Below, piece by piece: positions 12,459-30,637 of a stretch of 30,637 bases of DNA; the stretch's first letter is position 1; each line of letters begins with the position of its first letter. The stretch spans positions 1 through 30,637 of the forward strand of contig JBJHCF010000052.1 in assembly GCA_050506795.1 (NCBI GenBank), written 5' to 3'. The translations under genes were made by a program, and so were the position numbers. The notes under the pieces were generated by a model. That model did not search any database and had not been told where the DNA came from. It worked only from the letters and a program-made list of their open reading frames with translations. Source of the stretch: Opitutia bacterium (GTDB taxonomy: Bacteria; Verrucomicrobiota; Verrucomicrobiia; Opitutales; T3Sed10-336).

Positions 12459-12463
12459 TTTTG

Positions 12464-12487
12464 GGCGTTCGCAAAGAACGTTTTTTT
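12464..12487 (+). terminator. Rho-independent terminator
   Basis: Short hairpin CGTTC-GCAAA-GAACG followed by T7, just after the symporter stop codon. Confidence 0.55.
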
Positions 12488-12509
12488 GAATGACTCGACG
12501 AAATCTAGA

Positions 12510-12542
12510 TTGACTCAGGCGAGATTGAGACCTAGTCTTAAT
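12510..12542 (+). promoter_or_regulatory. Sigma70 promoter with an overlapping Fur-box-like inverted repeat
   Basis: TTGACT (12510-15), 17-nt spacer, TAGTCT (12533-38). The 19-bp palindrome ATTGAGAC-CTA-GTCTTAAT (12524-12542, one mismatch) covers the -10, directly upstream of an iron ABC operon. Confidence 0.72.
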
Positions 12543-15172: not shown

Positions 15173-16272
15173 TGGCGCCGCTTCTGGAAGTAAATAATTT
15201 GACCAAACGTTTCGACCGCCGCTTACCGCCGGTGGTAAACGACGTCAGTTTTGCGATTGAGCCGGGAGAAATATTTGCTCTGCTCGGTCCCAGCGGCTGC
15301 GGCAAGACGACTTCTCTGCGCATGGTTGCGGGATTGGAAACCGTGGATTCGGGTCGCATCCGCATGGGCGGAGTATTGCTGGAGGGGAATGGCAAACCGG
15401 TTCCGGCGGAAAACCGGGGGATCGGGTTTGTCTTTCAGGACTACGCGCTTTTTCCCCATATGACGGTCAATCGCAACGTGGGCTTCGGCCTGCGGCGTCT
15501 GCCGCGAGACGAGCGCCGTCGCAAGGTTCGGCGGGCCCTGGATCTGGTGGGCCTTAAGGCATCCGCCGAAGCTATGCCATTCGAGCTCTCCGGTGGTCAA
15601 CAGCAGCGGGTCGCACTCGCAAGGGCCCTGGTGGCCGAGCCGAAACTGATTCTCCTCGACGAACCTTTTTCCAACCTTGACGCCGTTCTCCGGGAATCGA
15701 CCCGGGTGGAGGTCCGCAATCTACTCAAGTCCACCGGAATGACCACGCTCCTGGTCACCCACGACCAGGAGGAGGCCTTGTCGTTCGCCGACCGGTTGGT
15801 GGTGATGAACGAAGGCCGAATCGAGCAGACCGGCACCCCGGAAGAGGTCTACAATCGCCCGCGCACCGCTTTTGTTTCCCGGTTTCTCGGCCGCACCAAC
15901 CTGATCGACGGCGAGGCCAAGGGTTGTATGGCGGAAACCGTGCTCGGGCGTATTCGGCTCGATCGAACGATCTGGGGACGGGTCCTGGTGTCCTTGCGAC
16001 CGGAACACCTGACCCTGCGCCCGTGGGACGAGCGGGCCAACCGGCCCCCGGGGGTGATCGTGGGGCGCGCCTTCAAAGGCCACGACATCACCTACCGCAT
16101 CCGCTTTCCGGACCGGGAATGGCTGGTGCACACCGACAACCGAACGCAGTTCCAAACGGGAGATCGCGCCCTCCTCGCCGCCCTGGAGCCGGGAGTGGTG
16201 CTGGATGACGCTCCTGATTCGGTGGCGCTGTACGCTTCTCCGGAACCAGCCGAAATCGCCGCCGGCGCCTGA
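15169..16272 (+). CDS. fbpC: Fe3+ ABC transporter ATP-binding protein
   Basis: Walker A GPSGCGKT, LSGGQQQR, LLDEPFSNLD, VTHDQEEA, TOBE-like C-terminus. Confidence 0.92.
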   Translation: MMAPLLEVNNLTKRFDRRLPPVVNDVSFAIEPGEIFALLGPSGCGKTTSLRMVAGLETVDSGRIRMGGVLLEGNGKPVPAENRGIGFVFQDYALFPHMTVNRNVGFGLRRLPRDERRRKVRRALDLVGLKASAEAMPFELSGGQQQRVALARALVAEPKLILLDEPFSNLDAVLRESTRVEVRNLLKSTGMTTLLVTHDQEEALSFADRLVVMNEGRIEQTGTPEEVYNRPRTAFVSRFLGRTNLIDGEAKGCMAETVLGRIRLDRTIWGRVLVSLRPEHLTLRPWDERANRPPGVIVGRAFKGHDITYRIRFPDREWLVHTDNRTQFQTGDRALLAALEPGVVLDDAPDSVALYASPEPAEIAAGA

Positions 16273-16340
16273 ACGCCACCAGCCGCCCCTTGCGGCAGCA
16301 GAGCATAGGGACTGAATCGCTGCTGTGCTTGAATCGATGT

Positions 16341-16378
16341 TATTTTGCCAGGCAAAATATAATTGACAGATTTGGTGT
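16341..16378 (+). repeat. Palindromic repeat copy 1
   Basis: TATTTTGCC-A-GGCAAAATA (16341-16359) followed by TAATTGACAGATTTGGTGT. Core is identical to the copies at 23939 and 29962. Confidence 0.9.
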
Positions 16379-16483
16379 TCCCGGGCGTCGTTTCAATCCG
16401 GCTTGGGTCGGAACTGCATTAACGAATTTGAGGCCTGACAGCCGCATAGCGGTCGGGATTAAGTGCCATTTCGGCACAATGGC

Positions 16484-17026
16484 TTATTCCGCGTGGCGGG
16501 CCAGCAACCAAAGGAGATCGGAAACCCGGTTGATGTATTGTCCGTGCAACGGAGGCGGGGCCATGCCGTGGTCTCGAAGATCCAGCAGCCGGCGCTCGGC
16601 CCGCCGCGCGGTGGTTCGTGCCAGGTCGAGGGCGGCGGCGGGGCGGTTGGCGCCGGGGAGCGCCCAGCCGGTGAATTTTAGGCCGCGCGCTTCCAGGCGT
16701 TCGATTGCAGCATCGACGCGATCCAGGGCGTTGATTTCGAGGCAGGGAAAACGCTCGCGATAACGGGCGCGGTCCGCCGGCTCGCAGGCGATTTCTCCCA
16801 TCAGGCCGATCAAATCCTCCTGAATTCGGGTCATGGTCCCCCGCACCCCTTCATCCTCCGAGCAAGCCTTGGCCCAACCCAGCACCGCATTGAGTTCGTC
16901 AATCGCTCCCACCGCTTCCAGTCGCGGGTCGTTTTTCGCCACCCGCGGTCCAAAAAGGAGGTCCGTGGTTCCGTCGTCTCCGCGGCGGGTGGTGATGGAA
17001 GGTGTGCTGCGCTTTTCTTCGGACAT
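16484..17026 (-). CDS. pduO: ATP:cob(I)alamin adenosyltransferase, PduO type
   Basis: ITTRRGDDGTTDL, GAIDELNAVLG, ARTTARRAER, YINRVSDLLWLLAR. ATG at 17026 gives 180 aa. Confidence 0.92.
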   Translation of the reverse strand: MSEEKRSTPSITTRRGDDGTTDLLFGPRVAKNDPRLEAVGAIDELNAVLGWAKACSEDEGVRGTMTRIQEDLIGLMGEIACEPADRARYRERFPCLEINALDRVDAAIERLEARGLKFTGWALPGANRPAAALDLARTTARRAERRLLDLRDHGMAPPPLHGQYINRVSDLLWLLARHAE

Positions 17027-17088
17027 ACAACGGTCACGATGCACCCGCGGGTGTCTGCTTGTCGAGCGCTTACACCCGGCCGATCGTT

Positions 17089-17856
17089 CTACCGGTAGAG
17101 CTTGGGAAAGATTCGCATCCAGCCAATCGGACAGAGAAGGGCGGTGAGCAGCAGGAGAAAGGGGCCGTGGAGCAAGAGGGCCGCGCCGAACCCGTCGTTC
17201 CAAAGGGCGGCTTGGCCTATCCGCACCCCGTGATAAAGAGGAGAGGCGAAACAAATCACCTGGATGACACGGGGAACCTGGTCGAGGGGAAAGAAGATCC
17301 CGGAGAAAAAGAAGAGGGGGTTGATCAGGATCGCGTAGACGGTTTGAAACTGGTTGATGTTGCGGACAAAGGAACTGGCGATCAGGCCGATGGCGCCACA
17401 GGACAGCGCGACCACGAATCCGATCAGGGGAATCGTCCAGGCGAAAAGGGGATCGCCCAGCCGAAAGACGAGCAAAACGATGGTGACTCCCAGCGACATG
17501 CCCGCGCCTTTGAGGCCCACCCAGAGGTACTCACCCAGAATGATCTCTCTCGGACCGATGGGGGTGGTCATCATGGCCTGGTAAACGTGCTCGTAGGTGT
17601 GACGGATAAAGAATCCGTAGCTGGTCTCGAAAAAAGCCGACCACAACGCGGTGGAGATCGCCAGGCCGGGAGCCAGGAATACCAGGTAGCTGCGTCCGTC
17701 GATATCGGTGATATAAGCTCCCAGCCCGATTCCGAGCGCCAGAATGATAAAGAGCGGGTCGGAAAGGGTGGGGGAGATGTTCGCCACGAAATTCTGGCGG
17801 TAGACATCCCAGTGGCGCATGGTGACCCGCCAGGCCAATGAAAAGGTCTCACGCAT
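17089..17856 (-). CDS. ABC-2 type exporter permease (NodJ-like)
   Basis: Hydrophobic ABC-2 permease: FLAPGL, PIGPREIILGE, PLFFFSGIFFP, SPLYHG. Start 17856 overlaps the stop of the ATPase gene. Confidence 0.85.
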   Translation of the reverse strand: MRETFSLAWRVTMRHWDVYRQNFVANISPTLSDPLFIILALGIGLGAYITDIDGRSYLVFLAPGLAISTALWSAFFETSYGFFIRHTYEHVYQAMMTTPIGPREIILGEYLWVGLKGAGMSLGVTIVLLVFRLGDPLFAWTIPLIGFVVALSCGAIGLIASSFVRNINQFQTVYAILINPLFFFSGIFFPLDQVPRVIQVICFASPLYHGVRIGQAALWNDGFGAALLLHGPFLLLLTALLCPIGWMRIFPKLYR

Positions 17857-18817
17857 CGCCGCCCAGCTCCCTTCCGGTGATTTCAAGAAATACGTCTTCC
17901 AGCGTACTCGGCCGGATAATACGCGGTATCATTCCGTGGTGTCCCAGGAAACTTTCCACCGCCGCCAGACCGGGGCCTCGCACGTTGATCCCCGCCCGGT
18001 CCTCGAACCACGAGAAGTCGGGGTTTTCAGCGGCGGCCGTCACCAGCCGTTCGCGCAGTCCGGCCTCCTTGGGGAATACCGCCACCGTGCCCGGGCAGTG
18101 GCGGTCGATCAGTTCCCGGGGCGCTCCTTCCGCCTTGATTTCGCCCTCGTTCATGATCACCAGCCGGTCGCAGAGACGCTCGGCTTCGTCCATGTAGTGG
18201 GTGGTCAGGAGAACGGTGGTTCCGGTGTCCTTCAGCGCACGCACGCGTTCCCACATGTGCAGGCGGACGGCCGGGTCGAGACCGGTGGTGGGTTCGTCGA
18301 GCACCAGCAGACCGGGTTGACGCAGAAGCGCCCGCACAAAAACCAGCCGCCGCTGCATTCCGCCCGAAAGGTTGCGAATACGCGCATTGGCGCGGTGGTC
18401 CAGCGACATGGCGCGCAAGAGTTCGTCGACACGTTTTCCGCGGTCGGCTCGGGGCAGCCCGACGCAGCGGGCGTACATCATCATGTTGGCCCGCACGCCC
18501 ATGTCTTCGTCCAGAGCGTTTTCCTGCGTCACCACCCCCAGCCGTTTCTTTATTTCCCGGGCTTCCCGTGCCGGATCCAAGCCGAACACCGTGAGCGACC
18601 CGCCCGACCGGGAGGTGGCGCCGTAGAGGATCCGGATAGCGGTGGATTTCCCCGCGCCGTTGGGACCGAGCAAACCGAAACACTCGCCCCGGGCGATGCT
18701 GAAGGACGCGCCGCGCACGGCCTGGACGGAGCCGAAATTCTTTCGCAGATCCCTCGCTTCCACCACCGGTGAGTCGGATGCGTCATTGGAAAGGGAATTC
18801 ATCTCGGTCGCTTTCAT
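17849..18817 (-). CDS. ABC exporter ATP-binding protein (NodI/DrrA-like)
   Basis: GECFGLLGPNGAGKST, LSGGMQRR, LDEPTTGLDP, TTHYMDEAERLCDR, TLEDVFLEITGR. Confidence 0.9.
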   Translation of the reverse strand: MKATEMNSLSNDASDSPVVEARDLRKNFGSVQAVRGASFSIARGECFGLLGPNGAGKSTAIRILYGATSRSGGSLTVFGLDPAREAREIKKRLGVVTQENALDEDMGVRANMMMYARCVGLPRADRGKRVDELLRAMSLDHRANARIRNLSGGMQRRLVFVRALLRQPGLLVLDEPTTGLDPAVRLHMWERVRALKDTGTTVLLTTHYMDEAERLCDRLVIMNEGEIKAEGAPRELIDRHCPGTVAVFPKEAGLRERLVTAAAENPDFSWFEDRAGINVRGPGLAAVESFLGHHGMIPRIIRPSTLEDVFLEITGRELGGDA

Positions 18818-19075
18818 GGCCGGTTATCTGCCGTCGAATACCAACGCGGAAGCGATCTTTAAGGCAAGCGTCGTTTTTTGGGCGCTTATCGAACGTATTA
18901 CGGAACATGGAAACAAGCGCTTGCGTCCGGGTTTGGCTTGCGGGAAACATCGAGACGAATCGATAGTGTTTGGGCCGGACACCGGTCCGGAACGTCCGGT
19001 TACGTTTGCCTTCGATTCGACACCGGGGCGCCCGGGTCCGTGTGTCCTTCGCGTCGTGTCCGATCCATCCGCGCC

Positions 19076-20719
19076 ATGAAAAAAATCCTGTTTCCCATGT
19101 TCACCTTTCTAGCGGCCTTTTCCGGCGTTATGGGGCTCGCCCGGGCCGATTCCGCCATGAACCCGATTATCCACGCGGACGTACCCGACATGTCGATGAT
19201 TCGTGTCGGCGATACCTACTACATGAGCAGCACGACCATGCATATGAGTCCCGGTCTGCCCATCATGAAATCGACCGATCTGGTGAATTGGGAGCTGGTG
19301 AGTTATTGTTACGACACCCTGGCCGATGTCGACGCGCTGAACCTCGATAACGGACGCAGCGCCTACGGCGCCGGGTCGTGGGCGAGCAGCATCCGTTATC
19401 ACAACGACACCTACTACGTTTCGACCTTCGCCGGCACCACCAACCGGACCTATATCTATTCCACCGTCGATATCGAAAACGGACCCTGGGAGGTGCGGAG
19501 CTTCGCGCCGGCTTATCACGACCACACCCTCTATTTCGACGATGACGGACGGATTTATATGATCTGGGGGGTCGGGCGGCTTGAAATCATCGAACTCGAA
19601 CCCGACCTGTCGGGAGTGAAGCCAGGCACCCGGCGTGTCCTGATCGAAGACGCCAGCGCTCCCGCCGGCGACAACATGATGCTCGGCTCCGAGGGCTCCC
19701 AGTTGTTCAAAGTGGATGGGGAATATTACCTCTTCAATATCTGCTGGCCCCGGGGAGGAATGAGAACCGTGGTCATTCACCGCGCCGACGAGATCACCGG
19801 CCCCTACGAAGGCAGGCTCGCTTTGCAGGACCGGGGGATAGCGCAAGGGGGCCTGATCGACACGCCTGAGGGTGACTGGTACGCCTACCTTTTTCGCGAT
19901 TACGGTGCGGTGGGAAGAATTCCGTATTTGGTTCCGGTGACCTGGGAGGATGGCTGGCCGGTGTTGGGAACCGACGGAACCGTACCGGACCAACTCGATT
20001 TGCCCGCCAGCACGGGTCTGGAGCCGGGGATCGTGGCGTCCGACGATTTTCGGCGTGACGACGGCGAACCCGCTCTGCCGCTGGTCTGGCAGTGGAATCA
20101 CAATCCGGATAATTCCCTCTGGTCGCTTACCGAGCGCGAAGGGTTTTTGCGTTTGAAGACCGGCCGGGTGGACGATCATTTTCTGGAGGCCAGAAACACG
20201 CTGACCCAGCGCACCATCGGCCCGGTGAGCACCGGGGCCACAAGGGTGGATGTTTCGAATATGAAGGAAGGGGATTTTGCCGGTTTGGCCCTGCTGCAAC
20301 GGCGCTACGGATTGGTAGGCGTGAAATACCAGGACGGAGAAAAAGCGGTGGTGATGGTGGGTGTCGAATCCGATTCCCCAGTCGAGGTGGAACGGGTGGT
20401 GATCGAGAAGGATTGGATTTACCTGAGAGCCGAATGCGACTTCCGGGATCGGGCCGACACCGGGGGGTTTCATTTCGGGTTGGACGACAGTGAATCGGGC
20501 ACCAACGCCGACGAATACCTGACCGACACCGGCTATTTTTACTACAGTCTCGACGGCGACAATTGGATCCGTATCGGTTCGCCGCTGCGAATGGTTTACA
20601 CCCTGCCGCACTTCATGGGCTACCGTTTCGGCCTGTTCAACTTCGCCACCCAAACACCCGGCGGTTACGTCGATTTCGATTATTTCCACATCAGCGACCG
20701 GATCTCCGATACGCAGTGA
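19076..20719 (+). CDS. GH43 beta-xylosidase/arabinofuranosidase with C-terminal beta-sandwich, secreted
   Basis: Signal peptide MKKILFP…ARA; NPIIHADVPDMSMIR, SSTTMHMSPG, WASSIRYH, SEGSQ, AQGGLID, WQWNHNP, FMGYRFGLFNFAT. Confidence 0.9.
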   Translation: MKKILFPMFTFLAAFSGVMGLARADSAMNPIIHADVPDMSMIRVGDTYYMSSTTMHMSPGLPIMKSTDLVNWELVSYCYDTLADVDALNLDNGRSAYGAGSWASSIRYHNDTYYVSTFAGTTNRTYIYSTVDIENGPWEVRSFAPAYHDHTLYFDDDGRIYMIWGVGRLEIIELEPDLSGVKPGTRRVLIEDASAPAGDNMMLGSEGSQLFKVDGEYYLFNICWPRGGMRTVVIHRADEITGPYEGRLALQDRGIAQGGLIDTPEGDWYAYLFRDYGAVGRIPYLVPVTWEDGWPVLGTDGTVPDQLDLPASTGLEPGIVASDDFRRDDGEPALPLVWQWNHNPDNSLWSLTEREGFLRLKTGRVDDHFLEARNTLTQRTIGPVSTGATRVDVSNMKEGDFAGLALLQRRYGLVGVKYQDGEKAVVMVGVESDSPVEVERVVIEKDWIYLRAECDFRDRADTGGFHFGLDDSESGTNADEYLTDTGYFYYSLDGDNWIRIGSPLRMVYTLPHFMGYRFGLFNFATQTPGGYVDFDYFHISDRISDTQ

Positions 20720-20795
20720 CGGCACCTGTTTTCGCCGCCGACAGACTCCCGTGGCGAAAGGGGATGGCACTCGACTCGGGTGTATCACGGAATTC

Positions 20796-20874
20796 TTGAC
20801 CACAGATTGCAGGATAACACAGATTCGAAGGCAGACGTTTCGTATCTGTGCCCATCCGGGAAATTTGTGGTTAA
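20796..20874. repeat. Long imperfect inverted repeat with CACAGAT / ATCTGTG units (REP-like)
   Basis: Left arm TTGACCACAGATTGCAGGATAACACAGAT versus reverse complement of the right arm TTAACCACAAATTTCCCGGATGGGCACAGAT. Confidence 0.75.
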
Positions 20875-20920
20875 GGAAGTTGATCGAAAGAGCTTAACCG
20901 AATCGCACCGGCAATTCCCT

Positions 20921-20944
20921 GGAGGGCCATGCTCCCGCATGGCC
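20921..20944 (+). repeat. REP-like hairpin with GGAG foot
   Basis: GGAG + GGCCATGC-TCCC-GCATGGCC (perfect 8-bp stem). A related degenerate unit lies at 23902. Confidence 0.6.
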
Positions 20945-20960
20945 GCAAGCGTTCCGGACG

Positions 20961-20996
20961 GTAGTGGCGGTCCGTTCCCGTCGCAACGGCCGCCAC
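20961..20996 (+). repeat. REP-like hairpin with GTAG foot
   Basis: GTAG + TGGCGG-T-CCGTT-(8-nt loop)-AACGG-CCGCCA, a bulged stem. Confidence 0.55.
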
Positions 20997-21068
20997 CTGG
21001 CCGAACCCTGACTTGGCCACACAGGATTCGGTTTCTTACTATATGAGCGCCCTTTTGCCTGGAGGGAA

Positions 21069-23393
21069 TCAAAAGATACGTTGTTGCAGGTAAATCACGT
21101 CGCCATTCTTGATTTCCCAGACGTTGGCGCCATCACCGCGAAGCATCGCGTCAACGTCCACAGTATAACGCTGCCCGTCACGCTGGACCACCGTTTGGTT
21201 TAGTCTGGCGCGGTCGGCCCACCCTCCCGCGTATCCCAGCGCTTGGAGGATGGTCGAGCCGGGATCGAGTTCATAGACTCCGGGCTGGTTCACTTCACCT
21301 AACACCGTGACGCGGAGCATCGTCTGTTCTTCGACGACCGGCTCGGAAAGACCGTCGGACGTTTCGGCGCTACGGGTCGCTTCTTCCGAATGGCTTGGCG
21401 ACGGTTCGCCGACGAGCGGAACCGGCGGGCTGAAGAGGGATCGTCGTGCTCCCTCAGCGCGAGCGCCGCCGGCAAAGGGATCCTCAGCGGCGTGGGTCGC
21501 CGCTTTCCAGGCCTCGAAATCCTCCCGCAGGGCGTTGCCGATAGGCCGGATGGCGTTCGAAAAATCCTGGTGTTCGTAGGGCTCATCGTTGACGACTCTT
21601 TCGTTAAATCGCGCGATGGTATCCACGAGCCGCCGTGTTCGTTCGGTCGGCAGAATACCATCCGCCGCGATGTGAAGCGCCTTTGCATGTTCCAGGAGGG
21701 GGGCAACGCGTGCCGTGTAGTCAGGAGGGCGAAGCCGAAGCGGCTGCGACATTATGCGCCCGATTTCTTGCAGAAGCCATTCAACGCGCTCCCCATAGGC
21801 GAGGAATTTGGGGGTGAGAATCAGCGACACGATCCTTCCTTCGCCGTCTTCCCCGAGTTCGATAGTTTGTTCTCCTCCTAACGGCGAGAGAGTGGCGCTG
21901 AAAGGCCGGTCCAGTCGAAGAAACGAGCCAGGATCGTTGGCTCGAAAACCTCCCCCCTGGTGCACTTCAACGTTTCCGGAAAGTTCGATCGATCCGTCGA
22001 CCAGCTCTCCTTCCAGGTAGAACAAAGAGGAAGATCCCCTGTCGTAGGCGACAGACAGACTGCCGGATTGTCCGGAAAGGAAGGTGATTTCGGCTATCGG
22101 GGTTTCGTGGAGAAGGTTTCCGTGTGTTTCATGACGAATCTCCAGGCGTCCGGAAAAGCGGATGACAGGGGCTTCGTCGTAGGCTGAGGCTTGATCCGGA
22201 GTTTCCGCGCTTTCGGGAGGGGTTTCGGAGGCGGTCATTCGGACGGAGGCGATTGTGATCGCCGCGGCGGCGCAGGCGATCAGCCCGAAGGTGAGCGCGG
22301 CGCGACTCGGTGAGTTGCGGTTGAGTTGTGTGTCCATGATTGCGAGCAGTCTTGTTTCGAGGGAGGATTTTCGTGCCATCGCCAGGGCGATGAATGGAGC
22401 CCCGATCCGGGATTTCCGGGACAAAGCGAAGGAAAGGAGGGTTTCGCCGTAGTGGGTGGAGGGAACGCCGGCGTTGAGAACGAGATCGTCACACGCCTTT
22501 TCCCGCGTGACGCGCAGTCGCCGGTTCAGCAACCACACGAGGGGATGAAACCAGTAGACGGCCAGGCAGGTTTGGGCCAGGAGCTGCGTCAGGCAGTCCC
22601 TTCGCTTGACGTGGGCGAGTTCGTGGAGGAGTACCGTTGGCACCCGGTCGGCGGTCCAGTGCTCGGCCTCCTCGGGGAGGACGATGGTCGCGCGCCAAAG
22701 GCCGCAGGTGAAAGGCACGTGGCTTCGGGTCGTCAGACGCAACTCCACCGTCCGTTTCACGCCGAGCGTTTGTGACGCGCGGGCCAGCTGTTGTGCGAGA
22801 GGGTGTTGGTCGGGCAGCCGCCGCGCCCGCCGGATCAGGTGTGCCGCGCGGAGGTGACCGCAGAGGAGCGCCGCCAGGAAAAGGCCGGCGCCCGCCAACC
22901 AAACAGCGACGACACCGGAACGCCAATCGAGACTTGTCGAAACGGGCGACTGACTTTCCCGTGGAAGGGGGGACACCGCGGGGATTGGAGCGGTCCGGCC
23001 GGGGTCGGTCGTTGGCGCGGTCCGGGGAGCGGAATCAAACGTCGCGGCAACGGGTGGCGGCGTTTCCGGAGTGAATGTTGCCGACAACGATTCGGCGGCC
23101 GGCCTGCCGGTTTCCGCCGGCGCGTCCGGGGTGTTGATCGCGGCGCCGGGTGAAGTTGCGGTCACGGACGGCAGGACCGCGAGCCGGAATTCCGGTGAAA
23201 CGGTCGTCAGGAGCGGAAGCAGCAGAAGGGCGCCCACGGTCAGGGCGCACACCGCGTGACGGGTGGCGGCGGACCGCCGGTGCAGGAGAATGCCGACGAC
23301 TCCCGCGAGGAGCAGCAGGAATGTCGCTTTGACGACGAGGTCGGCGAAAAAGTCGAAGGAGGCGGGGGTGATGACGGGGAGTAGAGCGTTCAT
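21069..23393 (-). CDS. BlaR1-like M56 metallopeptidase / anti-repressor with C-terminal SLBB domain
   Basis: N-terminal TM helices, HELAHVKRRD zinc motif, YWFHPLVW, REKACDD, LETRLLAI. C-terminal VTVLGEVNQPGVY…QALGYAGG…GDVIY is SLBB/Wza-like. Confidence 0.88.
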   Translation of the reverse strand: MNALLPVITPASFDFFADLVVKATFLLLLAGVVGILLHRRSAATRHAVCALTVGALLLLPLLTTVSPEFRLAVLPSVTATSPGAAINTPDAPAETGRPAAESLSATFTPETPPPVAATFDSAPRTAPTTDPGRTAPIPAVSPLPRESQSPVSTSLDWRSGVVAVWLAGAGLFLAALLCGHLRAAHLIRRARRLPDQHPLAQQLARASQTLGVKRTVELRLTTRSHVPFTCGLWRATIVLPEEAEHWTADRVPTVLLHELAHVKRRDCLTQLLAQTCLAVYWFHPLVWLLNRRLRVTREKACDDLVLNAGVPSTHYGETLLSFALSRKSRIGAPFIALAMARKSSLETRLLAIMDTQLNRNSPSRAALTFGLIACAAAAITIASVRMTASETPPESAETPDQASAYDEAPVIRFSGRLEIRHETHGNLLHETPIAEITFLSGQSGSLSVAYDRGSSSLFYLEGELVDGSIELSGNVEVHQGGGFRANDPGSFLRLDRPFSATLSPLGGEQTIELGEDGEGRIVSLILTPKFLAYGERVEWLLQEIGRIMSQPLRLRPPDYTARVAPLLEHAKALHIAADGILPTERTRRLVDTIARFNERVVNDEPYEHQDFSNAIRPIGNALREDFEAWKAATHAAEDPFAGGARAEGARRSLFSPPVPLVGEPSPSHSEEATRSAETSDGLSEPVVEEQTMLRVTVLGEVNQPGVYELDPGSTILQALGYAGGWADRARLNQTVVQRDGQRYTVDVDAMLRGDGANVWEIKNGDVIYLQQRIF

Positions 23394-23414
23394 AGGAAGG
23401 GATGATGTTGGGAG

Positions 23415-23819
23415 TTATTGGCCGTTGTGGTTGCCGGATCGGTTTTCCGGGCCGCGGATGATTTTTGTCAGGCGGTCGATTTCCTCCTGATCGAGCACGG
23501 TGTCGGACGATTCCAGGAGTCCGGCGACCGCCGACGACAGGGAGCCGTTGTAGAACGTGTTCAAGACGCCAGCCAAAGCGGAGGCTCCGGCATGTTTTTT
23601 GGGTTCCCGGGGACGGTAGATGTATTTGTTACCTTCCGCGGAGTACTTGACGTGCCCCTTGTTGACCAGGATTCCCAGCAGAGCACGGGTGGCGGAATAA
23701 CTCGGCGGGTCAGGTAACTCCTTGCGCACCTCCGCCGCCGAGGCCCGTTCCAGACGGAAAAGTATGTCCATGATCTGGCGCTCACGCTTCGAAAGAACAA
23801 TGGGCTTCGTTTTGCTCAT
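23415..23819 (-). CDS. BlaI/MecI/CopY family transcriptional repressor
   Basis: LSKRERQIMDILF, LPDPPSYSATRALLGILVNKGHV, YIYRP, TFYNGS. Directly upstream of the M56 gene. Confidence 0.92.
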   Translation of the reverse strand: MSKTKPIVLSKRERQIMDILFRLERASAAEVRKELPDPPSYSATRALLGILVNKGHVKYSAEGNKYIYRPREPKKHAGASALAGVLNTFYNGSLSSAVAGLLESSDTVLDQEEIDRLTKIIRGPENRSGNHNGQ

Positions 23820-23820
23820 A

Positions 23821-23880
23821 GTGCTAAATTATTAACACCGACCCGAGCTGGTCAAGGATTTTATTGCTAAATTTTTAACA
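23821..23880 (-). promoter_or_regulatory. blaI promoter with two operator palindromes; probably a leaderless transcript
   Basis: TGCTAA-ATTA-TTAACA (23822-37) and TGCTAA-ATTT-TTAACA (23865-80) flank minus-strand TTGACC (23855-50). TAATTT lies 18 nt downstream of it and ends 6 nt before the ATG. Confidence 0.8.
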
Positions 23881-23901
23881 GGGGGTGCCGGCCTCTATTC
23901 G

Positions 23902-23926
23902 GGAGGGCGCGCATCCCGGCCCGTCT
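23902..23926 (+). repeat. Degenerate GGAG-foot REP-like hairpin
   Basis: GGAG-GGCGCGC-ATCCCG-GCCCGTC has the same GGAGGG…TCCCG frame as the unit at 20921. Confidence 0.35.
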
Positions 23927-23938
23927 CTCGCGGGGGGA

Positions 23939-23966
23939 TTATTTTGCCAGGCAAAATAAAATTGAT
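23939..23966 (+). repeat. Palindromic repeat copy 2
   Basis: Perfect TTATTTTGCC-A-GGCAAAATAA (23939-23959) followed by AATTGAT. Confidence 0.9.
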
Positions 23967-23984
23967 AGACAATTGCCTGCTCCG

Positions 23985-24072
23985 ACTGGCGGGCGCGAGA
24001 ACAATACTCGGCGGTGTCGTCGTCGCCCCGCCGGGTGGAGATGGGAGATTTCCTGCTGGTCTGGTCTGACAT
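23985..24072 (-). pseudogene. 5' remnant of a second pduO
   Basis: MSDQTSRKSPISTRRGDDDTAE versus intact MSEEKRSTPSITTRRGDDGTTD. After a 1-nt frameshift it continues (L)LFSR versus LLFGPR. The 3' boundary is approximate. Confidence 0.75.
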
Positions 24073-24286
24073 GAGACTGTCAGGATCCGCCGGGAACGGA
24101 TGAGCTATCGGGTGCGCGTATTCTGGAAGGGCGTCGCTGGCAGCGGTTGTTTTCCTGAAACTCGCGGCTGCCGTGCGGATTTCCAAGAATTTGAGGGACA
24201 AATCGAGCGACAGTCTTCAAGCTCCTCGTTTTCGCGCCACTGGTTTTCCCGTGGACCGTCCTGCCAACGCACAGACTTGAGTTAAA

Positions 24287-24550
24287 ATGAAAAGCTTTGA
24301 AGAACTCTTCGCCGAATTGCAGCAAAAGGCCGCTTCGGGCGATCCGGCTTCGGGGACGGTGCGCGCCCTGGAGAAAGGGAAACATGCCATCGGCAAGAAA
24401 ATCATCGAGGAGGCCGGGGAGGTCTGGATGGCGGCGGAATATGAGGGGAAGGAAAAGACCGCCGAGGAGATTTCGCAACTCCTGTATCACTTGCAGGTGA
24501 TGATGCTGGCCTGCGACCTTGAGTTGGAGGACGTGTACCGTCACCTTTGA
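24287..24550 (+). CDS. hisE: Phosphoribosyl-ATP pyrophosphatase
   Basis: [11 protein letters not shown]…[18 protein letters not shown]…[14 protein letters not shown]…DVYRHL; 87 aa, monofunctional. Confidence 0.95.
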
Positions 24551-24557
24551 AAGAATC

Positions 24558-25424
24558 ATGACTGAATCCGCAGCAACATTACGCGTCGCCATTCCCAACA
24601 AGGGAGCCTTGTCGGAAGAGGCCGTGCAACTGGTCAAAGACGCCGGCTACCGGTGTCGCCGGGATGATCGCGAGCTGTTCGCTCTCGACCGCGAGCACGA
24701 TTTGGAATTCGTTTTCCTCCGTCCGCGGGATATCGCGGTTTACGTCGGCAACGGAACGGTCGACCTGGGAATTACCGGTCGTGACCTGGCGCGTGACAGT
24801 GGGGCCGAAGTGACCGAATTGCTGCCGCTGGGATTCGGCCGGTCGGCTTTTCACTACGCGGCGCCGAACGAGGCGGAGGTATTGCGTGACACGCTCGGCG
24901 GATTGCGGATCGCCACCTCCTACCCGCACATCGTGCGCGAGGATCTGGCGGAACGTGGGCTGGAAGCCAGGGTGGTGCGGCTCGACGGCGCGGTGGAGAT
25001 TTCCATTCGTCTCGGGGTGGCCGACGTGATCGCCGATGTGGTGCAGTCGGGAAAAACGCTGCAACAGGCGGGCTTGAGAATACTGGGGGAACCCGTGCTT
25101 CGTTCGGAAGCCATCCTGATCGGACGAAACCGGATGGTGGCGCGACAGGAGGCGGTCCGTATCCTTATGGAACGTTTTCAGGGTATTCTGGTGGCGCGCG
25201 AATACGCGGTCATCGAATACGACCTCCCCAAGAATCTGCTGGAAAAGGCGAGCGAAATCACACCCGGAGTGGAGGCTCCCACCGTGGCGCCGTTAAGCAA
25301 ACCCGATTGGGTCGCGGTCAAGGCCATGACCTTGCGCAAGGACATCAATCGCACGATGGATGAACTCAAGCGGCTGGGCGCCAGTGGCATTATTGTGACC
25401 GAGATTCGTTCCTGCCGGCTGTAG
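24558..25424 (+). CDS. hisG: ATP phosphoribosyltransferase (long form)
   Basis: LRVAIPNKGALSE, LRPRDIAVYV, GITGRD, RIATSYP, DGAVEISIRLGVADVIADVVQSG, TPGVEAPTVAPL. Confidence 0.95.
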   Translation: MTESAATLRVAIPNKGALSEEAVQLVKDAGYRCRRDDRELFALDREHDLEFVFLRPRDIAVYVGNGTVDLGITGRDLARDSGAEVTELLPLGFGRSAFHYAAPNEAEVLRDTLGGLRIATSYPHIVREDLAERGLEARVVRLDGAVEISIRLGVADVIADVVQSGKTLQQAGLRILGEPVLRSEAILIGRNRMVARQEAVRILMERFQGILVAREYAVIEYDLPKNLLEKASEITPGVEAPTVAPLSKPDWVAVKAMTLRKDINRTMDELKRLGASGIIVTEIRSCRL

Positions 25425-25498
25425 CCCGTTCGGTTCACCGCGGAATAGTTGCAGGGCTTTGGCTTGCCTGATGGAGGCAAGTCGGCTTGGATGGCCGC

Positions 25499-25918
25499 AT
25501 GGGAGTGCATATCGGTACCTTGCGAATCTCAACCCGGGGCAAGGGCATGACGGAAATCACGGGCGAGGTTGCGGAAGAACTGCGCCGGAGCGGATTCACG
25601 GAGGGAGTTGCGACAGTTTTTTGCCGGCATACCAGTTGCAGTCTGGTGATTATGGAAAATGCCGACCCCACCGCGCGGCGCGATCTGGAGGTGTATTTCG
25701 AAAAATTGGTGCCCGAAAATGATCCGGACTTTCAGCACACCATGGAGGGACCGGACGATATGCCCAGTCACATTAAGATGGCCCTGACGCGCACCTCGGA
25801 AGCAATCCCCTTTTCCGGCGGCAGCCTTTTGCTGGGAACCTGGCAGGGGATTTACCTTTGGGAGCACCGCAATATGCCCCACGGTCGTACGGTGCTGGTT
25901 GCCGTTCAAGGGAACTGA
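25499..25918 (+). CDS. yjbQ: YjbQ/UPF0047 family protein (secondary thiamine-phosphate synthase)
   Basis: HTSCSLVIMENADP, HTMEGPDDMPSHIK, LGTWQGIYLWEHR. Confidence 0.92.
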   Translation: MGVHIGTLRISTRGKGMTEITGEVAEELRRSGFTEGVATVFCRHTSCSLVIMENADPTARRDLEVYFEKLVPENDPDFQHTMEGPDDMPSHIKMALTRTSEAIPFSGGSLLLGTWQGIYLWEHRNMPHGRTVLVAVQGN

Positions 25919-26056
25919 ATGGGGCGAATGAAGTCCGAAGTATCGGCCGATTTCTGGCAATTCATGATCGAACCCCTTTTCGATTAAGATCCTAATGCAA
26001 TAGGCGTTGCGCAGGCGAGGAAAGCGATCTAAGTTTCAGAGAACGTGACTAAAGCT

Positions 26057-27592
26057 ATGTTACCGCGTCTTAGAAAAATATTGGCCATAGTGTTGGTCCT
26101 GGGCGGAAGCGTCGCGCTCTGGGCAACTGGTCCCGGCGATTGGGGCGAAACAGCGGAGCCTTCCGCCGGGAATGGAGCGGAAGCACTGTCGGCCGAGGAA
26201 CCAGGCGAACCCGGGGCGGGTGAAAGACTGAAGACGGTTTACATCCTGCCGGTGAAGGACCAGATCGGCCGTCCGATTCACTACATACTTCGGCGTGGAA
26301 TGAAGGAGGCAGCGGCTCAGGGTATCGACCTGGTGGTCTTGGATATGGACACCCCAGGCGGCAGGCTCAACGTGACCCTGGACATCATGGAAATGATGGC
26401 GCGTTTCGAGGGAGACACGGCGACCTTTGTGAACCCGGACGCCATTTCCGCCGGAGCGTTCATCGCCGCCTCGACCAAGAATATTTATTTTTCGCCCCGC
26501 GGCGTGATGGGGGCGGCGGCGCCAGTAACCGCTACCGGGGACGACATTCCGACCGCCATGAAACAGAAGCTATTGAGCTTCCTGACTGCGCGGATTCGTT
26601 CCTTTACCGAGGAGGTTCCTTACCGCACTGAGGTCCTGACGGCGATGGTGGACGCCGATTTTGAGCTGATTATCGATGACGAGGTGATTTCCCCAGAAGG
26701 ATCCCTGCTGAGTCTCACCGCCAGTGAGGCAGTGCGGGAATTCGGAGATCCGCCACATCCGTTGCTGGCCCAGGGGATTTACCCTGACATCCAGTCTCTG
26801 CTGGACGCCCGGTTCGGAGTCGGAAATTACGAGATAAAAGAGTTTCATGTGACCTGGTCCGAACACGTGACCCAGTACTTGTCCGCCATCGCTCCCATTT
26901 TGATCGCGCTGGGACTTATCATGCTGTACATGGAAGCGCAGAGCCCGGGATTCGGGGTTTTCGGCATGATCGGGGTTGCCGCATTGGGGCTCGTTTTCCT
27001 CGGGAATTATGCCGCCGGACTGGCAGGTTACGAACCGGTGCTGTTCTTCCTTCTCGGACTCATCCTGATTGCCGTCGAAGTATTCTTTTTTCCCGGGACT
27101 TTCGTTTTTGCCATTTCCGGCGTTCTGCTGGTCATTGGCTCACTGATATACGGCATGGCCGATATATGGCCGGATGAAGGTTTTTCTTTTTCTCCCGATG
27201 TCCTGGTAGGCCCAGCCTTGAATGTTTTCGCCGGGATCATACTCGCGGTGGTGTTGGGGATTCTGTTTGCCCGTTTCATGCCCAGGGCATGGTTTCTCGA
27301 CCGTCTGATCCTCAGCTCGGCCGTGACCGGTTCTTCTCAGTCAGGTGGTGCGTTTTTTCCGATGGGTGAACCGGCTGTGGATGACGCGAGCCGTTCGCCG
27401 TCGGTGCCTGCCGGAAAACCGGAGGTCGGCGCGCGGGGTCGCGCCACCAGCGATTTGTACCCCGGTGGGGAAGTGGAGATTGACGGCAAGCGCTACCAGG
27501 CCCGGGCCGAGATCGGTATGGTCAAAAGCGGCCGGGACGTCGAGGTGACCGGATATGGGGATTTTCTGTTAATCGTAAGGGAGATCTCCTGA
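26057..27592 (+). CDS. nfeD: Long NfeD family protein (ClpP-like serine protease + TM + OB-fold; YqeZ-like)
   Basis: MDTPGG, AISAGAFIA (catalytic Ser), TM region with SPGFGVFG and FFPG, C-terminal SDLYPGGEVEIDGKRYQA. Start is GTG 26045 or ATG 26057. Confidence 0.88.
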   Translation: MLPRLRKILAIVLVLGGSVALWATGPGDWGETAEPSAGNGAEALSAEEPGEPGAGERLKTVYILPVKDQIGRPIHYILRRGMKEAAAQGIDLVVLDMDTPGGRLNVTLDIMEMMARFEGDTATFVNPDAISAGAFIAASTKNIYFSPRGVMGAAAPVTATGDDIPTAMKQKLLSFLTARIRSFTEEVPYRTEVLTAMVDADFELIIDDEVISPEGSLLSLTASEAVREFGDPPHPLLAQGIYPDIQSLLDARFGVGNYEIKEFHVTWSEHVTQYLSAIAPILIALGLIMLYMEAQSPGFGVFGMIGVAALGLVFLGNYAAGLAGYEPVLFFLLGLILIAVEVFFFPGTFVFAISGVLLVIGSLIYGMADIWPDEGFSFSPDVLVGPALNVFAGIILAVVLGILFARFMPRAWFLDRLILSSAVTGSSQSGGAFFPMGEPAVDDASRSPSVPAGKPEVGARGRATSDLYPGGEVEIDGKRYQARAEIGMVKSGRDVEVTGYGDFLLIVREIS

Positions 27593-27660
27593 GTGAAATC
27601 ATTTCCGCAAAATAAAGAAAACAATGGCTCGCGACGGGACTGCCGTAATAGAAGATTGCC

Positions 27661-28128
27661 ATGCTGACTGTCATCATAGGCCTGTTTGCGCTGGGGGTGG
27701 TTTTGATTTTTTTTGAGTTGCTGGTTCCGGGAGGGATCCTGGGTATGCTTGGAGCCTTGGCTATGCTGGGAGGCTGTGTCTTGGCGTTTATTGAATACGG
27801 AGTTGGGGGTGGGTTGCTGGCGTTTCTCCTGTTTTCCGTCCTTGGGGCTGCCTGTTTGGCGATTGAGCTCAAATGGCTGCCCCGTACTCGCATCGGTGGG
27901 AAGTTTTTCCTCCAGGGTGCGGTTCGCGGCACCAGTCATCAACCTCCGGCGCCCGACACTTTGATCGGCAAGGAGTGTGAAGCCTTGACGACCCTCTCGC
28001 CCACGGGTTTAGTCAAGGTGGAAGGCAAACAATATGAAGCCTTTTCCCAAAGCGGCCTGATCAATCGGGGAGCCCGTATGAAGGTCGTGGCAGTGGATAA
28101 TTTTCGAGTAACAGTCACCAAGTTATGA
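27661..28128 (+). CDS. Short NfeD family protein (TM + OB-fold)
   Basis: [13 protein letters not shown] segments; [29 protein letters not shown]. Confidence 0.85.
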
Positions 28129-29162
28129 ATCCTCAAATCGTAGTTTTAATCGTCCTCGGCGTCATCATCCTGGTGGCAGCCGGGATTTTTTTCTCATTCC
28201 TGAGCGTGTGGTTGCGCGCTTGGCTGGCCGGCGCCTACGTCAGTATCGCCAATCTGATCGCTATGCGGCTTCGCCAGGTACCCTATGGACTGGTGGTAGA
28301 CGCCCGCATTACGGCGAAGAAAGCCGGTATCGAATTGACCACTGACGAACTGGAAGCGCATTTTTTGGCCGGCGGGAATTTGATTCCGACCGTACAGGCT
28401 CTGGTGGCCGCCATGAAGGCCGGCATTACCCTGGATTTCAGCCGGGCTTGCGCCATCGACCTCGCTACCCGTGGTAGCGGCAAGTCTGTGACCGAGGCGG
28501 TTCGAACTTCGGTGGATCCGAAGGTGATTGACTGTCCCAACCCGCAGCAGGGACGTGCCACCATCGACGGGGTGGCCAAGGATGGAATCCAGGTCAAGGT
28601 AAGGGCTCGGGTAACGGTGCGGACCAATCTCGACCGATTTGTCGGTGGAGCCAAGGAAGAGACCATCATCGCCCGAGTCGGTGAGGGTATCGTTACCACG
28701 ATTGGTTCGGCCGACACCTATAAGACCGTTCTTGAAAGCCCGGATGCTATTTCCAAGGTAGTCCTGCAGCGCGGCTTAGATGTCGGCACGGCCTTTGAAA
28801 TCCTATCCATCGACATTGCCGACGTCGACGTTGGCGAGAATGTTGGCGCTCAATTGCAGGAGGCCCAGGCCGAAGCGAACAAGAACATGGCGCAGGCTCA
28901 GGCGGAAATTCGCCGTGCTGCCGCCGTGGCTCTGGAACAGGAGAACAAGGCCAAGGTGCAGGAAATGCAGGCCAAAGTGGTCGAGGCTCAGGCCCAGGTT
29001 CCGCTGGCCATGGCCGAAGCGTTCCGCAAGGGGAATCTTGGCGTGATGGATTATCAGCGCTTTATGAATATTCAGTCCGACACCGACATGCGTAAGTCGA
29101 TCGCGAAGCCCGAGGACGGGGGGACATCCTCCACCCAGGCGGGCGGACCCGGAGGAAAATGA
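28125..29162 (+). CDS. floA: Flotillin-like protein FloA (YqfA/UPF0365)
   Basis: [76 protein letters not shown]. Confidence 0.94.
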
Positions 29163-29225
29163 TCTTAAGGTCACCAGAATCGTTTTACGAAGGGGTTCGC
29201 GCGGACTTTTTCAACCGGAGGTATC

Positions 29226-29909
29226 GTGGATAGCTGGTTCGAACTTCTGATCCCGATCATCGTCGTCGTCCTGTATCTAATGAATCGGATGCGGGGAGGC
29301 GGCGATGAGTTCGAAGGCCCGCCACGTGACGAGTCCGAAGCGGATGCTGAGGCTCGGCGGATCCAGGAGGAGATTAGGCGCAAAATCGTGGCCCGTCAGC
29401 AGGGACGGGCAATTGACGAGACGGGTCAACCAGAGATCGAAGGTCCGGTCTATACGCCTCGTGAGGCCGAGCCACAACGCTTCGAGCGATACGATTCCTT
29501 TTCTGAGCTGAGGGAACCGGTGTCTGAAAGCTTTCAGTCCCGGTCGGAAGTGGTGACCCCGGCGGCGCCGGCTGCTTTTGGAGGAGGCGCGGATCGAGAT
29601 TATCAGGCTGAGTTGCGGAAGCAACTGGAGCGAGTTCAGGAAGCCAAGAAGGCCCGTCAGCAGGCAACCCGTATGGCTCGGGAAAGGGCTGGCGGCCAAT
29701 CGGCCACCAGCGGTTTGGGAGGAACCGGGTTTCGTCATGCCGCCGGGCAAGTTCAGCGCCGTTACCGTAATTACCCCGTGAGCCAGGTACAGCAGGAGCT
29801 CTTTAACCGGAACGGATTGCAGAAAGCGTTCGTGTTGAAAGAAGTTCTTGGACCTCCCTTGAGCCTGCGCCCCCCCGGCGACAGTCACGCCGAACTCTCC
29901 CGCAGCTGA
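29226..29909 (+). CDS. Hypothetical membrane-anchored protein, positional equivalent of YqfB
   Basis: GGAGG RBS, N-terminal TM helix, charged/coiled middle, C-terminal LQKAFVLKEVLGPPLSLR; directly after floA. Confidence 0.75.
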   Translation: MDSWFELLIPIIVVVLYLMNRMRGGGDEFEGPPRDESEADAEARRIQEEIRRKIVARQQGRAIDETGQPEIEGPVYTPREAEPQRFERYDSFSELREPVSESFQSRSEVVTPAAPAAFGGGADRDYQAELRKQLERVQEAKKARQQATRMARERAGGQSATSGLGGTGFRHAAGQVQRRYRNYPVSQVQQELFNRNGLQKAFVLKEVLGPPLSLRPPGDSHAELSRS

Positions 29910-29961
29910 TACCGACTCGACCTCCCTATTAACCGTTCTGTTTGTGTTCTGGTCGCCAAGA

Positions 29962-30001
29962 TTATTTTGCCAGGCAAAATGTAGGTTGACGGCTTTGGTT
30001 T
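29962..30001 (+). repeat. Palindromic repeat copy 3, upstream of the RAYT gene
   Basis: TTATTTTGCC-A-GGCAAAAT (29962-29980), then GTAGGTTGACGGCTTTGGTTT. The palindrome ends 41 nt before the transposase ATG. Confidence 0.9.
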
Positions 30002-30021
30002 TGTGGGATTGGGTATGGGGC

Positions 30022-30637
30022 ATGAGATTGAATCGGAGGCGACTGAAGGTTTTGGGGGAGGTGAGCGGGGTGTACCACTGCATGACCCGGGTGGTGGCCG
30101 GGGAGCGTTTGCTTATGAGGCGGGAGAAGGAGGTGTTGCGTAAACAACTCCACCGTCAGGCGGAGTTTTGCGGCGTGCAGGTGCTCACTTACTGCATCAT
30201 GAGCAATCACTTCCACGTCCTGGTACGGGTGCCTCCCGAGAGCGAGACGCGCGGGGTGGAGCTCGAGGAGTTGGTGCGGCGGGTGGGGGTGCTGTATCCG
30301 CGTGAGAAGGCCCTGGCGTGGGAGGCGCGTTTGCGTGGAGATGACGGCGAGGCGGCGCGGGAGCGTTTGCTGGCACGCATGGGTGATGTGTCGCAGTTCA
30401 TGCGTGAGCTCAAGCACCGCTTTTCATTGTGGTACAACCGCAGCCGGGGGCGTTACGGAACGTTGTGGGCGGAGCGTTTCAAGAGTGTGTTGGTGTCGCC
30501 GGATCGCGGGGCGCTCCTGGCGGTGTCGTGTTACATCGACCTGAACGCGGTGCGTGCGGGGCTATGCACGGACCCGAAGGACTACCGCTGGTGCGGCTAC
30601 GCGGAGGCGTGCGGGGGAGGCCTGCCCTCGCGTGCGG
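30022..30637 (+). CDS. HUH/Y1 tyrosine transposase, REP-associated (RAYT-like), truncated by the window edge
   Basis: Hand translation: MRLNRRRLKVLGEVSGVYHCMTRVV…YCIMSNHFHVLV (HUH)…MGDVSQFMRELK…WYN…GTLWAERFKSVLV…YIDLNAVRAG…PKDYRWCGY. No stop codon inside the window, so it is missing from the ORF track. Confidence 0.93.
   Translation, partial: MRLNRRRLKVLGEVSGVYHCMTRVVAGERLLMRREKEVLRKQLHRQAEFCGVQVLTYCIMSNHFHVLVRVPPESETRGVELEELVRRVGVLYPREKALAWEARLRGDDGEAARERLLARMGDVSQFMRELKHRFSLWYNRSRGRYGTLWAERFKSVLVSPDRGALLAVSCYIDLNAVRAGLCTDPKDYRWCGYAEACGGGLPSRA

Follow-up and report, generated by a model that had tools for sequence, protein, structure and literature searches.

A palindromic site with a TTGAC box as the candidate upstream end of a multi-copy Y1 HUH gene in Verrucomicrobiota

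This study was concerned with a short palindromic motif in a 30,637-nucleotide stretch of DNA from an Opitutia bacterium (the window; contig C52, JBJHCF010000052.1, of the G000 assembly, 4.94 Mb, 59% GC) and with the Y1 HUH transposase gene that one copy of the motif precedes. The site belongs to that gene family: it co-varies with the family, comes and goes with the gene, persists as solitary copies (solos) and marks a local switch in strand composition. It is real and not a product of chance, it does not define a regulon, and it is not a repetitive extragenic palindrome (REP). On balance, the sequence comparisons favor the motif as the upstream end of a multi-copy gene, where it would probably serve both as the recognition site of the encoded protein and as the -35 box of a leaderless promoter, with nicking likely at the palindrome or just 5' of it. 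The best reading is a recognition and promoter site with a single end (or with direct repeats), of the TIRYT or RAYT kind, which would give a Verrucomicrobiota HUH lineage its hitherto missing partner.

The motif and its genes in the window and the genome

The identical 19-mer TTATTTTGCCAGGCAAAAT is present on the plus strand of the window at positions 16340, 23939 and 29962, each time between genes; 100 shuffles gave a mean of 0.03 matches per window with 3 mismatches permitted. The first-pass annotation had described the three co-oriented intergenic copies and a TTGAC or TTGAT 4-5 nt further on, and this description was confirmed, the start coordinate of its finding (16341) lying one base inside the first copy. 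The gene-linked copy 3 (29962..29990, plus strand) comprises the palindrome, 5 nt and TTGAC at 29986-29990, which is likely the -35 box of the Y1_Tnp gene whose ATG, at 30022, lies 36 nt from it. The intervening 31-nt G/T-rich leader (29991..30021, plus strand) is homogenised among the copies of one genome. A consensus sigma-70 -10 element was not found before the HUH gene of the window, and by eye the solos have no -10 at 17 nt. The 5' part of the gene (30022..30637, plus strand) covers 205 of 324 codons, with His63-Phe-His65 at 30208-30216 and Tyr171 at 30532-30534, before the contig end truncates it. Contig C24 very likely carries the remaining 3' part; rpmH lies 3' of the gene end there, and the same upstream gene directly adjoins rpmH in three genomes of a sister genus (g5). 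In these three genomes the genes that flank copy 3 and the C24 gene are adjacent and motif-free.

The first-pass annotation had suggested counting the motif genome-wide, and the count gave 22-24 copies in G000, of which 11 are gene-linked and 11-13 solo. A weight matrix built from the 11 gene-linked sites scored these and 11 solos at 34 or above and two weaker solos at 27 and 24, and no match above 21.5 was found in the reversed genome. Recovery of the gene-linked sites by this matrix is circular, but plain patterns had found them beforehand. The motif precedes all 11 family gene starts found in G000 by tblastn. Eight of these genes are near-identical (92-97% in DNA, about 99% in protein) and three are paralogs at 55-62%, which carry the variant arms TAGCC/GGCTA or GACAGG. 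The near-identical copy on C20 is whole, and the other seven are split into seven left and seven right contig ends; read depth of the gene contig in a single DNA run was 89, compared with 13 genome-wide, which fits about 7 collapsed copies. Similarity between the copies starts within the left arm of the palindrome and stops at the stop codon. None of the 10 G000 gene ends that could be inspected has a right-end motif, direct or inverted. On C4 and C45, long inverted repeats stand just past the stop codon, with stems that take in the last bases of the gene; the C45 repeat is also found in G001, a second genome of the same genus.

The two solos of the window differ in their setting. Copy 1 (16340..16367, plus strand; palindrome 16342-16358, 4 nt, TTGAC 16363-16367) lies between convergent genes for an ABC ATPase (15169-16272, plus) and a cobalamin adenosyltransferase (16484-17254, minus). 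Copy 2 (23939..23966, plus strand; palindrome, 4 nt, TTGAT 23962-23966) is flanked by a blaI-like gene (minus) and hisE (plus). Both had been thought to have no plus-strand gene to drive, which is correct for copy 1, whereas copy 2 has hisE (PRA-PH) at 24287, approximately 320 nt away. On its 5' side copy 2 adjoins a degenerate GGAG-type REP (23901..23930, plus strand), which belongs to a separate repeat family. Solos lay within 200 nt of a GGAG REP in 5 of 12 cases (on C5, C25, C35 and C52, two of the five being neighbors on C25), compared with 103 of 1,615 control regions; no GGAG REP was found within 200 nt of the left ends of the 11 G000 genes. In addition, two similar imperfect dyads at 23821-23881, immediately upstream of the blaI-like gene, are probably its own operator, and a second blaI/blaR-like pair is located beyond the HUH gene end on C32.

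The genes next to the solos are functionally unrelated (ispF, ispD, dinG, aroB, acpS, hisE, ankyrin, FGE-sulfatase and others) and are met in either orientation; thus, the solos do not mark a regulon. The first-pass annotation had offered, as its second option, an operator of some regulator that also controls the transposase, and as the site of an ordinary host transcription factor this is scarcely credible. A dyad directly upstream of a -35 box is indeed what activator sites show, and 5 of the 13 solos point at a same-strand gene. However, the other 8 face a gene on the opposite strand, orthologous genes of relatives have no site or have it inverted, the motif is multi-copy only in two genera with close relatives of the gene (5 of 5 genomes), and another genus pairs a different palindrome with its own gene subfamily. 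The regulon reading was rejected because a conserved position before functionally related genes was not found. Motif subtypes cluster locally, with three alike on C52 and three on C5. At C21:40061-42341 (L003), a solo of the same subtype as the gene's motif stands 1.3 kb past the gene in inverted orientation, the pair enclosing pdxJ-like and acpS genes; this arrangement is absent from three sister-genus genomes.

Site variants across homologous loci

The upstream regions of homologous transposase genes, which the first-pass annotation had proposed to align, carry variants of the site at the same place (104 loci with enough upstream DNA). The best 80 of the homolog loci, where named, are almost all from Verrucomicrobiota. 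The asymmetric core GGGACAGG is present exactly at 38 of the 104 loci and with at most one mismatch at 54, and a GCCWGGC centre is present at 13. The distance from core to TTG is 10-12 nt in 35 of 44 measurable cases, and the site variant tracks the protein subfamily while the spacing to TTGAC stays constant. Upstream TTGAC is positioned 35 or 36 nt before the ATG in 27 of 69 occurrences and within 33-41 nt in 46. This position suggests that TTGAC is likely the -35 box of the gene and that the transcript is leaderless. In some homologs TTGAC is followed after 16-17 nt by a hexamer TAnnnT or CAnnnT, which is absent from the copy in the window. TTGAC is also kept in solos, in copies past stop codons, where a -35 role for the gene is impossible, and at both inverted ends of the TIRYT elements of G000.

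The genes with the palindromic form sit in one 11-row clade (support 97) of a quick tree in which the reference rows lie on long branches and for which no root is claimed. This clade includes a GGGACAGG member, and further symmetric forms are scattered elsewhere in the tree; thus, the asymmetric site would be the older form and the symmetric palindrome derived from it. With a strict pattern for the palindrome, matches were found in 8 of 41 genomes, including all five relatives from genera g1 and g5, the two genera in which it is multi-copy; two other genomes had single, apparently intragenic matches, and the reversed control had none.

These variants also bear on a REP-type hairpin, the kind of element that the first-pass annotation had raised. 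A classical REP-like site, read as a single-stranded stem-loop with a 5' guide tetranucleotide, is very improbable here. All three window copies can form an 8-9 bp stem with a 3-nt loop, the closest protein structure is a TnpA-REP, and the skew footprint described below is common to REPs. However, folding z-scores of -0.45 to -2.58 indicate a weak hairpin, and most homologs are asymmetric, the non-palindromic GGGACAGG being present in 38 of 104 and the GCCWGGC centre in only 13. The left arm is mismatched in several copies, the copy number is low, and a search of the G000 sites found no GTAG foot, no conserved 5' tetranucleotide and no conserved letters of an IS608-type guide 5' of the palindrome. 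The GTAG REPs of G000, moreover, have their own RAYT. An Rfam search of the window found no structured RNA match. Two other Y1 genes of G000 are likely the RAYTs of its classical repeats: one at C27:309-551, amid about 20 GTAG-REP matches, and one at C36:50038-50379, near GGAG-REP matches.

A subfamily from genus g4 has a different palindrome with the same centre-to-TTGAC spacing, with 43 and 35 matches in two genomes and none in controls. The 46 distinct g4 sites in the fetched loci comprise 11 left copies, 27 direct copies past the stop codon and 8 solos. Outside this subfamily a direct right copy was found at 3 of 99 homolog loci. An inverted core downstream was exact at 2 of 104 loci, and the best inverted match was at most 14 of 18 across 99 loci. 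Tandem motif copies also exist. One explanation of such arrangements is a site-specific recombination site: a gene circle would integrate at a solo and leave two direct repeats, and excision would restore the solo, as with solo long terminal repeats. The g4 counts fit this explanation, as do the tandem solos, the common orientation of the three window copies, and TTGAC/TTGAT itself, which we take to resemble the cleavage sequence of the IS605 family. It is nevertheless quite improbable, since none of the 10 available G000 gene ends has a right copy, right copies are so rare outside the g4 subfamily, empty sites are without the motif, and no clean pair of filled site and solo between close genomes was found for the five G008 elements tested.

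The TIRYT elements of G000 carry GGGGTCAGG, 10 nt and TTGAY at both of their inverted ends. The shared order of core, spacer and TTGAY gives our motif the layout of a TIRYT left end. Two such elements with true inverted ends are located at C35:37875-38900 and 43245-44262 (L170), and lone copies of their terminal inverted repeats (TIRs) are found on C5, C10 and C35.

Locus history and strand composition

The comparison of loci relied mainly on G001, which has about 88-90% DNA identity to G000 and is 67% complete. All eight ends of the near-identical family that were tested occupy the G000 loci in G001, and four of five tested G008 elements are also found in G005. Only two polymorphic gene sites were seen, G008:C52 relative to G005 and a site next to an SBF-like gene in G001 relative to G000. 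Since the loci are shared with sister species, the copies do not hop like an insertion sequence, and the notion that the units are currently mobile is not supported. At the second polymorphic site the window is empty (12459..12510, between SBF-like and solute-binding genes), and a paralog accompanied by its own variant of the motif is present in G001; the motif is missing where the gene is missing. The first option of the first-pass annotation, an end or promoter module with solo copies, is supported by this filled/empty pair, by the motif at 11 of 11 gene starts and by the homolog variants at the same place. Next to the empty site, a 19-bp dyad (12524-12542) upstream of the solute-binding gene of an ABC transporter is kept in G001; similar dyads are found on C64 upstream of a TonB-dependent receptor. 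By its look, we take this dyad to be an iron-regulator box.

Solos are retained as well. The motifs of copy 1, aroB and acpS are 95-100% identical from core to TTGAC in G001, while their flanks turn over, and the ispF solo is missing from G001. At copy 1 the motif and 3' flank are kept and the 5' flank is replaced. At blaI/hisE, a motif copy was not seen upstream of hisE in G002. The dinG locus has a full element in G011 and a same-orientation solo in G009, of the same genus. Furthermore, the motif is found in the same intergenic region of two genera, in opposite orientation, at ispF (G000:C5:91758 and G006:C64) and at dinG (G000:C5:139067 and G009:C19). Every one of the 8 orthologous motif pairs has indels of 3-70 nt within the 80 nt 5' of the core, and in 7 of 8 these reach at least 11 nt, compared with 25% of 198 control windows (p 0.0006). 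An excess of older TTGAC remnants upstream of motifs was not found, upstream and downstream being equal.

The gene copies evolve in concert. For example, over 83 codons the C36 gene has 16 differences from its G001 ortholog (14 of them synonymous, 2 other) and 1 from its paralog on C29. Codon changes are mostly synonymous (39 vs 3). Leaders and spacers are genome-specific, those of G001 being specific to G001, and the last codons are locus-specific. The leaders lie within read length of unique DNA, which limits assembly blurring, though it is possible.

The coding strand is the G-rich strand for 10 of the 11 G000 genes, with one at zero (baseline 54.7%, p 0.013), and in G008 for 20 of 22 copies examined, a figure given without baseline. 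The motif strand is G-rich for 9 of 13 solos, which is not significant. The G-rich strand is the lagging-strand template. IS200/IS605 elements prefer this template, according to PMC6006769.

Across G000 solos, the G+T content of the motif strand at fourfold sites of host genes goes up from 0.43 to 0.64-0.70, in both gene orientations. For 12 solos the switch over 150 nt was 0.202, compared with 0.047 +/- 0.047 in orientation-matched intergenic regions (0 of 1,000 draws), and for the 7 solos away from REPs it was 0.199 (p 0.013). Classical REPs of G000 also switch (58 GTAG and 106 GGAG loci, 0.12 vs 0.05 over 150 nt, p<=0.001), while 81 ordinary hairpin control regions do not (0.050). The 5' side of G000 left ends is low in G+T (0.41 vs 0.53, p 0.014). 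In G008, for which genes were called on amino-acid usage, G+T is 0.14-0.19 (n 21 and 16) within 200 nt of left ends and 0.87 for opposite-strand genes (n 178) at right ends, compared with 0.55-0.62 in controls (0.58-0.60 for the left ends); the skew fades over 0.5-1.5 kb. The switch at the motif has the polarity of a replication origin. G/T enrichment is the expected result of deamination on exposed single strands. In the pooled comparison of motif-bearing with motif-free orthologs, the ratio in the predicted direction was 144:108 near the site and 200:200 far from it. A mutational footprint common to the motif and the REPs is possible. Because host genes beside solos bear this strand-biased composition, the footprint that such cutting would leave, the motif is likely the binding and nicking site of the HUH protein.

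Several observations weigh against the motif being such a recognized and nicked upstream end. First, neither strand is favored at the 63 distant homolog loci (28 and 34 of 63), and their upstream G+T dip is weak (0.45). Secondly, the solo switch fades to p 0.056 at 300 nt, and same-strand genes 3' of G008 right ends give no signal (0.49, n 41). Third, the ortholog comparison with one comparator per gene is 48:45, so that the site may have chosen pre-skewed DNA; this comparison does not separate cause from target choice. Fourth, 30-nt 5' identities of 0.37-0.87 overlap those at other conserved TTGAC boxes (0-0.93, n 16), and part of the 5' turnover may thus be common to promoters. Lastly, ordinary RecA conversion is able to make 1-kb repeats uniform, repeat copies that end contigs can come out blurred in short-read assemblies, and an excision joint at the motifs was not seen in the single DNA run containing the window.

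Some of these points would also fit a simpler explanation, in which the site is only an autoregulatory binding site and a -35 box, the genes are paralogs that were domesticated long ago and are kept alike by host recombination, and the solos are inert relics of lost genes. Positions are fixed between species, TTGAC is at -35/-36, symmetric forms arose more than once, as a dimer operator would, the dinG locus offers a full/solo pair, and the skew may have another cause than the motif. This explanation is unlikely, however. Solos that were inert would hardly be kept at 95-100% between species despite turnover of their flanks, nor share a skew switch with REPs; tandem and post-stop copies do not suit it; and the HuH and Tyr residues are invariant in genes whose changes are mostly synonymous.

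If the motif is the nicked upstream end of the gene, as we favor, the following mechanism can be proposed. The HUH protein would bind the site and nick single-stranded DNA, mostly on the lagging-strand template, at or just 5' of the palindrome, and the strand would be displaced 3'-ward from the nick over some hundred bases. In most cases the displaced tract would be repaired at its own locus or would overwrite a sister copy; this would keep the copies alike between the palindrome and the vicinity of the stop codon and would produce the 5'-junction indels. Rarely the tract would land at a new, often nearby site. With no need for a matching right end, the unit would stop with the gene's stop codon, or with the next direct motif copy where one is present. 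Solos would be short copies or remains after gene loss that are still substrates, so that palindrome and TTGAC are kept and adjoining host genes gain G+T on the strand that leads away from the site. According to PMC8266576, HUH cleavage yields a 5'-phosphotyrosine together with a 3'-OH able to prime synthesis, and this chemistry is what the proposed displacement needs.

A bolder extension is rather unlikely, though it would tie the motif to the REPs. Domesticated HUH proteins would use both as nick-primed points of short two-way synthesis, that is, as miniature origins or fork-restart sites that leave an oriC-like G/T switch. RAYTs would thereby have the cellular job that has long been sought for them, and the present family would be a form that goes on rewriting its copies where they stand, from one end only.

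The protein and comparison with known systems

The protein has 324 residues, and His63, His65, Tyr171 and Asn175 are invariant in 52 aligned sequences. It has the class 2 YxxxN(P) motif and not YxxxQ (the window copy has Ala for Pro) and scores above the cut-off of PF01797; it is below the cut-offs of NF047646 (REP/RAYT; 56.6 bits, cut-off 80) and NF033573 (IS200/IS605; 15.5 bits, cut-off 55). The predicted structure (predicted local distance difference test, pLDDT, 89) matched best E. coli TnpA-REP 4er8 (Z 14.6, root-mean-square deviation 3.3, 160 aligned), followed by the IS608 and ISDra2 TnpA proteins, and has in the model a beta3-alphaC insertion of helices at 73-117. A C-terminal helix-turn-helix (HTH) had no Pfam match at E<=1, and the fold search of the whole model barely covered the C-terminal part; the C-terminal 130 residues had no named match in Pfam, NCBIfam or whole-model fold searches. 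At least 7,903 proteins, not all from this lineage, matched the family at E<=0.001 among 7,999 scored candidates.

The first-pass annotation did not anticipate the strand-skew switch, the concerted evolution or the direct-repeat form found in a related genus. The lineage gains a defined candidate substrate of 25-28 nt with natural specificity variants, and its end layout, with one end or two direct ends, differs from those of REPtrons, TIRtrons and IS200/IS605. As a readout of activity, the skew switch requires sequence alone and can be applied to any REP family. A literature search, mostly excluding subscription papers, found nothing on the site of the Verrucomicrobiota family, on RAYT-like concerted evolution or on a REP skew switch; publication elsewhere is possible.

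IS91/ISCR elements are one-ended rolling-circle elements, with one conserved end, HUH chemistry and an undefined other end. They have a different protein family, and here the conserved end is upstream of the gene and includes the promoter; recent spread or cargo was not seen for our family.

The TIRYT proteins and their TIRtrons correspond to TnpA-Y1 subclass 2.1 and to Bertels RAYT group 1, and for some TIRYTs, TIR copies that are clustered or dispersed as solos have been reported (Di Nocera et al. 2013, PMC3733652). The present system resembles them in having a class 2 Y1 HUH gene with a non-REP end motif and in its layout of core, 10 nt and TTGAY, as in the G000 TIRYT elements. The family core GGGACAGG, exact at 38 of the 104 homolog loci and within one mismatch at 54, resembles the TIRYT consensus GGGGWSAS, but the window variant has diverged to a palindrome. 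However, the inverted right end is nearly absent here (2 of 104 loci), and the right copy, if any, is direct. A C-terminal HTH (Bac_DnaA_C, HTH_23/28) is a feature of TIRYT membership; for our protein, which has a long beta3-alphaC insertion, no HTH tail was matched in Pfam. The TIRYT proteins lie on a separate long branch.

Subclass 2.3 of TnpA-Y1 (Quentin et al. 2018, PMC6006769) is similar in length (about 325 residues), HuH-Tyr distance (about 108-110; here His63/65 to Tyr171), several copies per genome and lack of a REP; that source reports that no flanking DNA structure was found. Our family has 11 gene copies in G000 and 41-45 matches in G005/G008. Its profile matched three gammaproteobacterial 2.3-type proteins at E 1e-33 to 1e-35, only over profile positions 1-193, and the matches end at 185-193 of 328 on these references, the distal C-terminal domain being different. 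The 10-residue beta1-alphaA insertion and proximal TS motif of the Shewanella, Vibrio and Photobacterium references are absent from P0002 and from the family consensus. Subclass 2.3 is described from Chromatiales and Alteromonadales, unlike this Verrucomicrobiota family. The family would thus be a 2.3-like lineage, membership of 2.3 not being shown by the three reference proteins on which it was judged.

The IS200/IS605 TnpA proteins (IS608, ISDra2) have the same fold as our model, and the coding strand on the G-rich strand fits their preference for the lagging-strand template. However, our family has YxxxN and not YxxxQ, there are no two subterminal hairpins and no guide, and its copies are 92-97% identical at old, shared loci.

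The REP/RAYT system (E. coli 4er8; PMC8266576 and PMC5581495) provides the best structural match and, like the present family, a vertically kept gene with dispersed intergenic partner sites; the local skew switch is as at the GTAG and GGAG REPs of G000. The present system differs in that the motif is AT-rich, without a GTAG foot, orientation-specific with TTGAC, present in about 23 copies and on one side only, and in that the gene itself is multi-copy.

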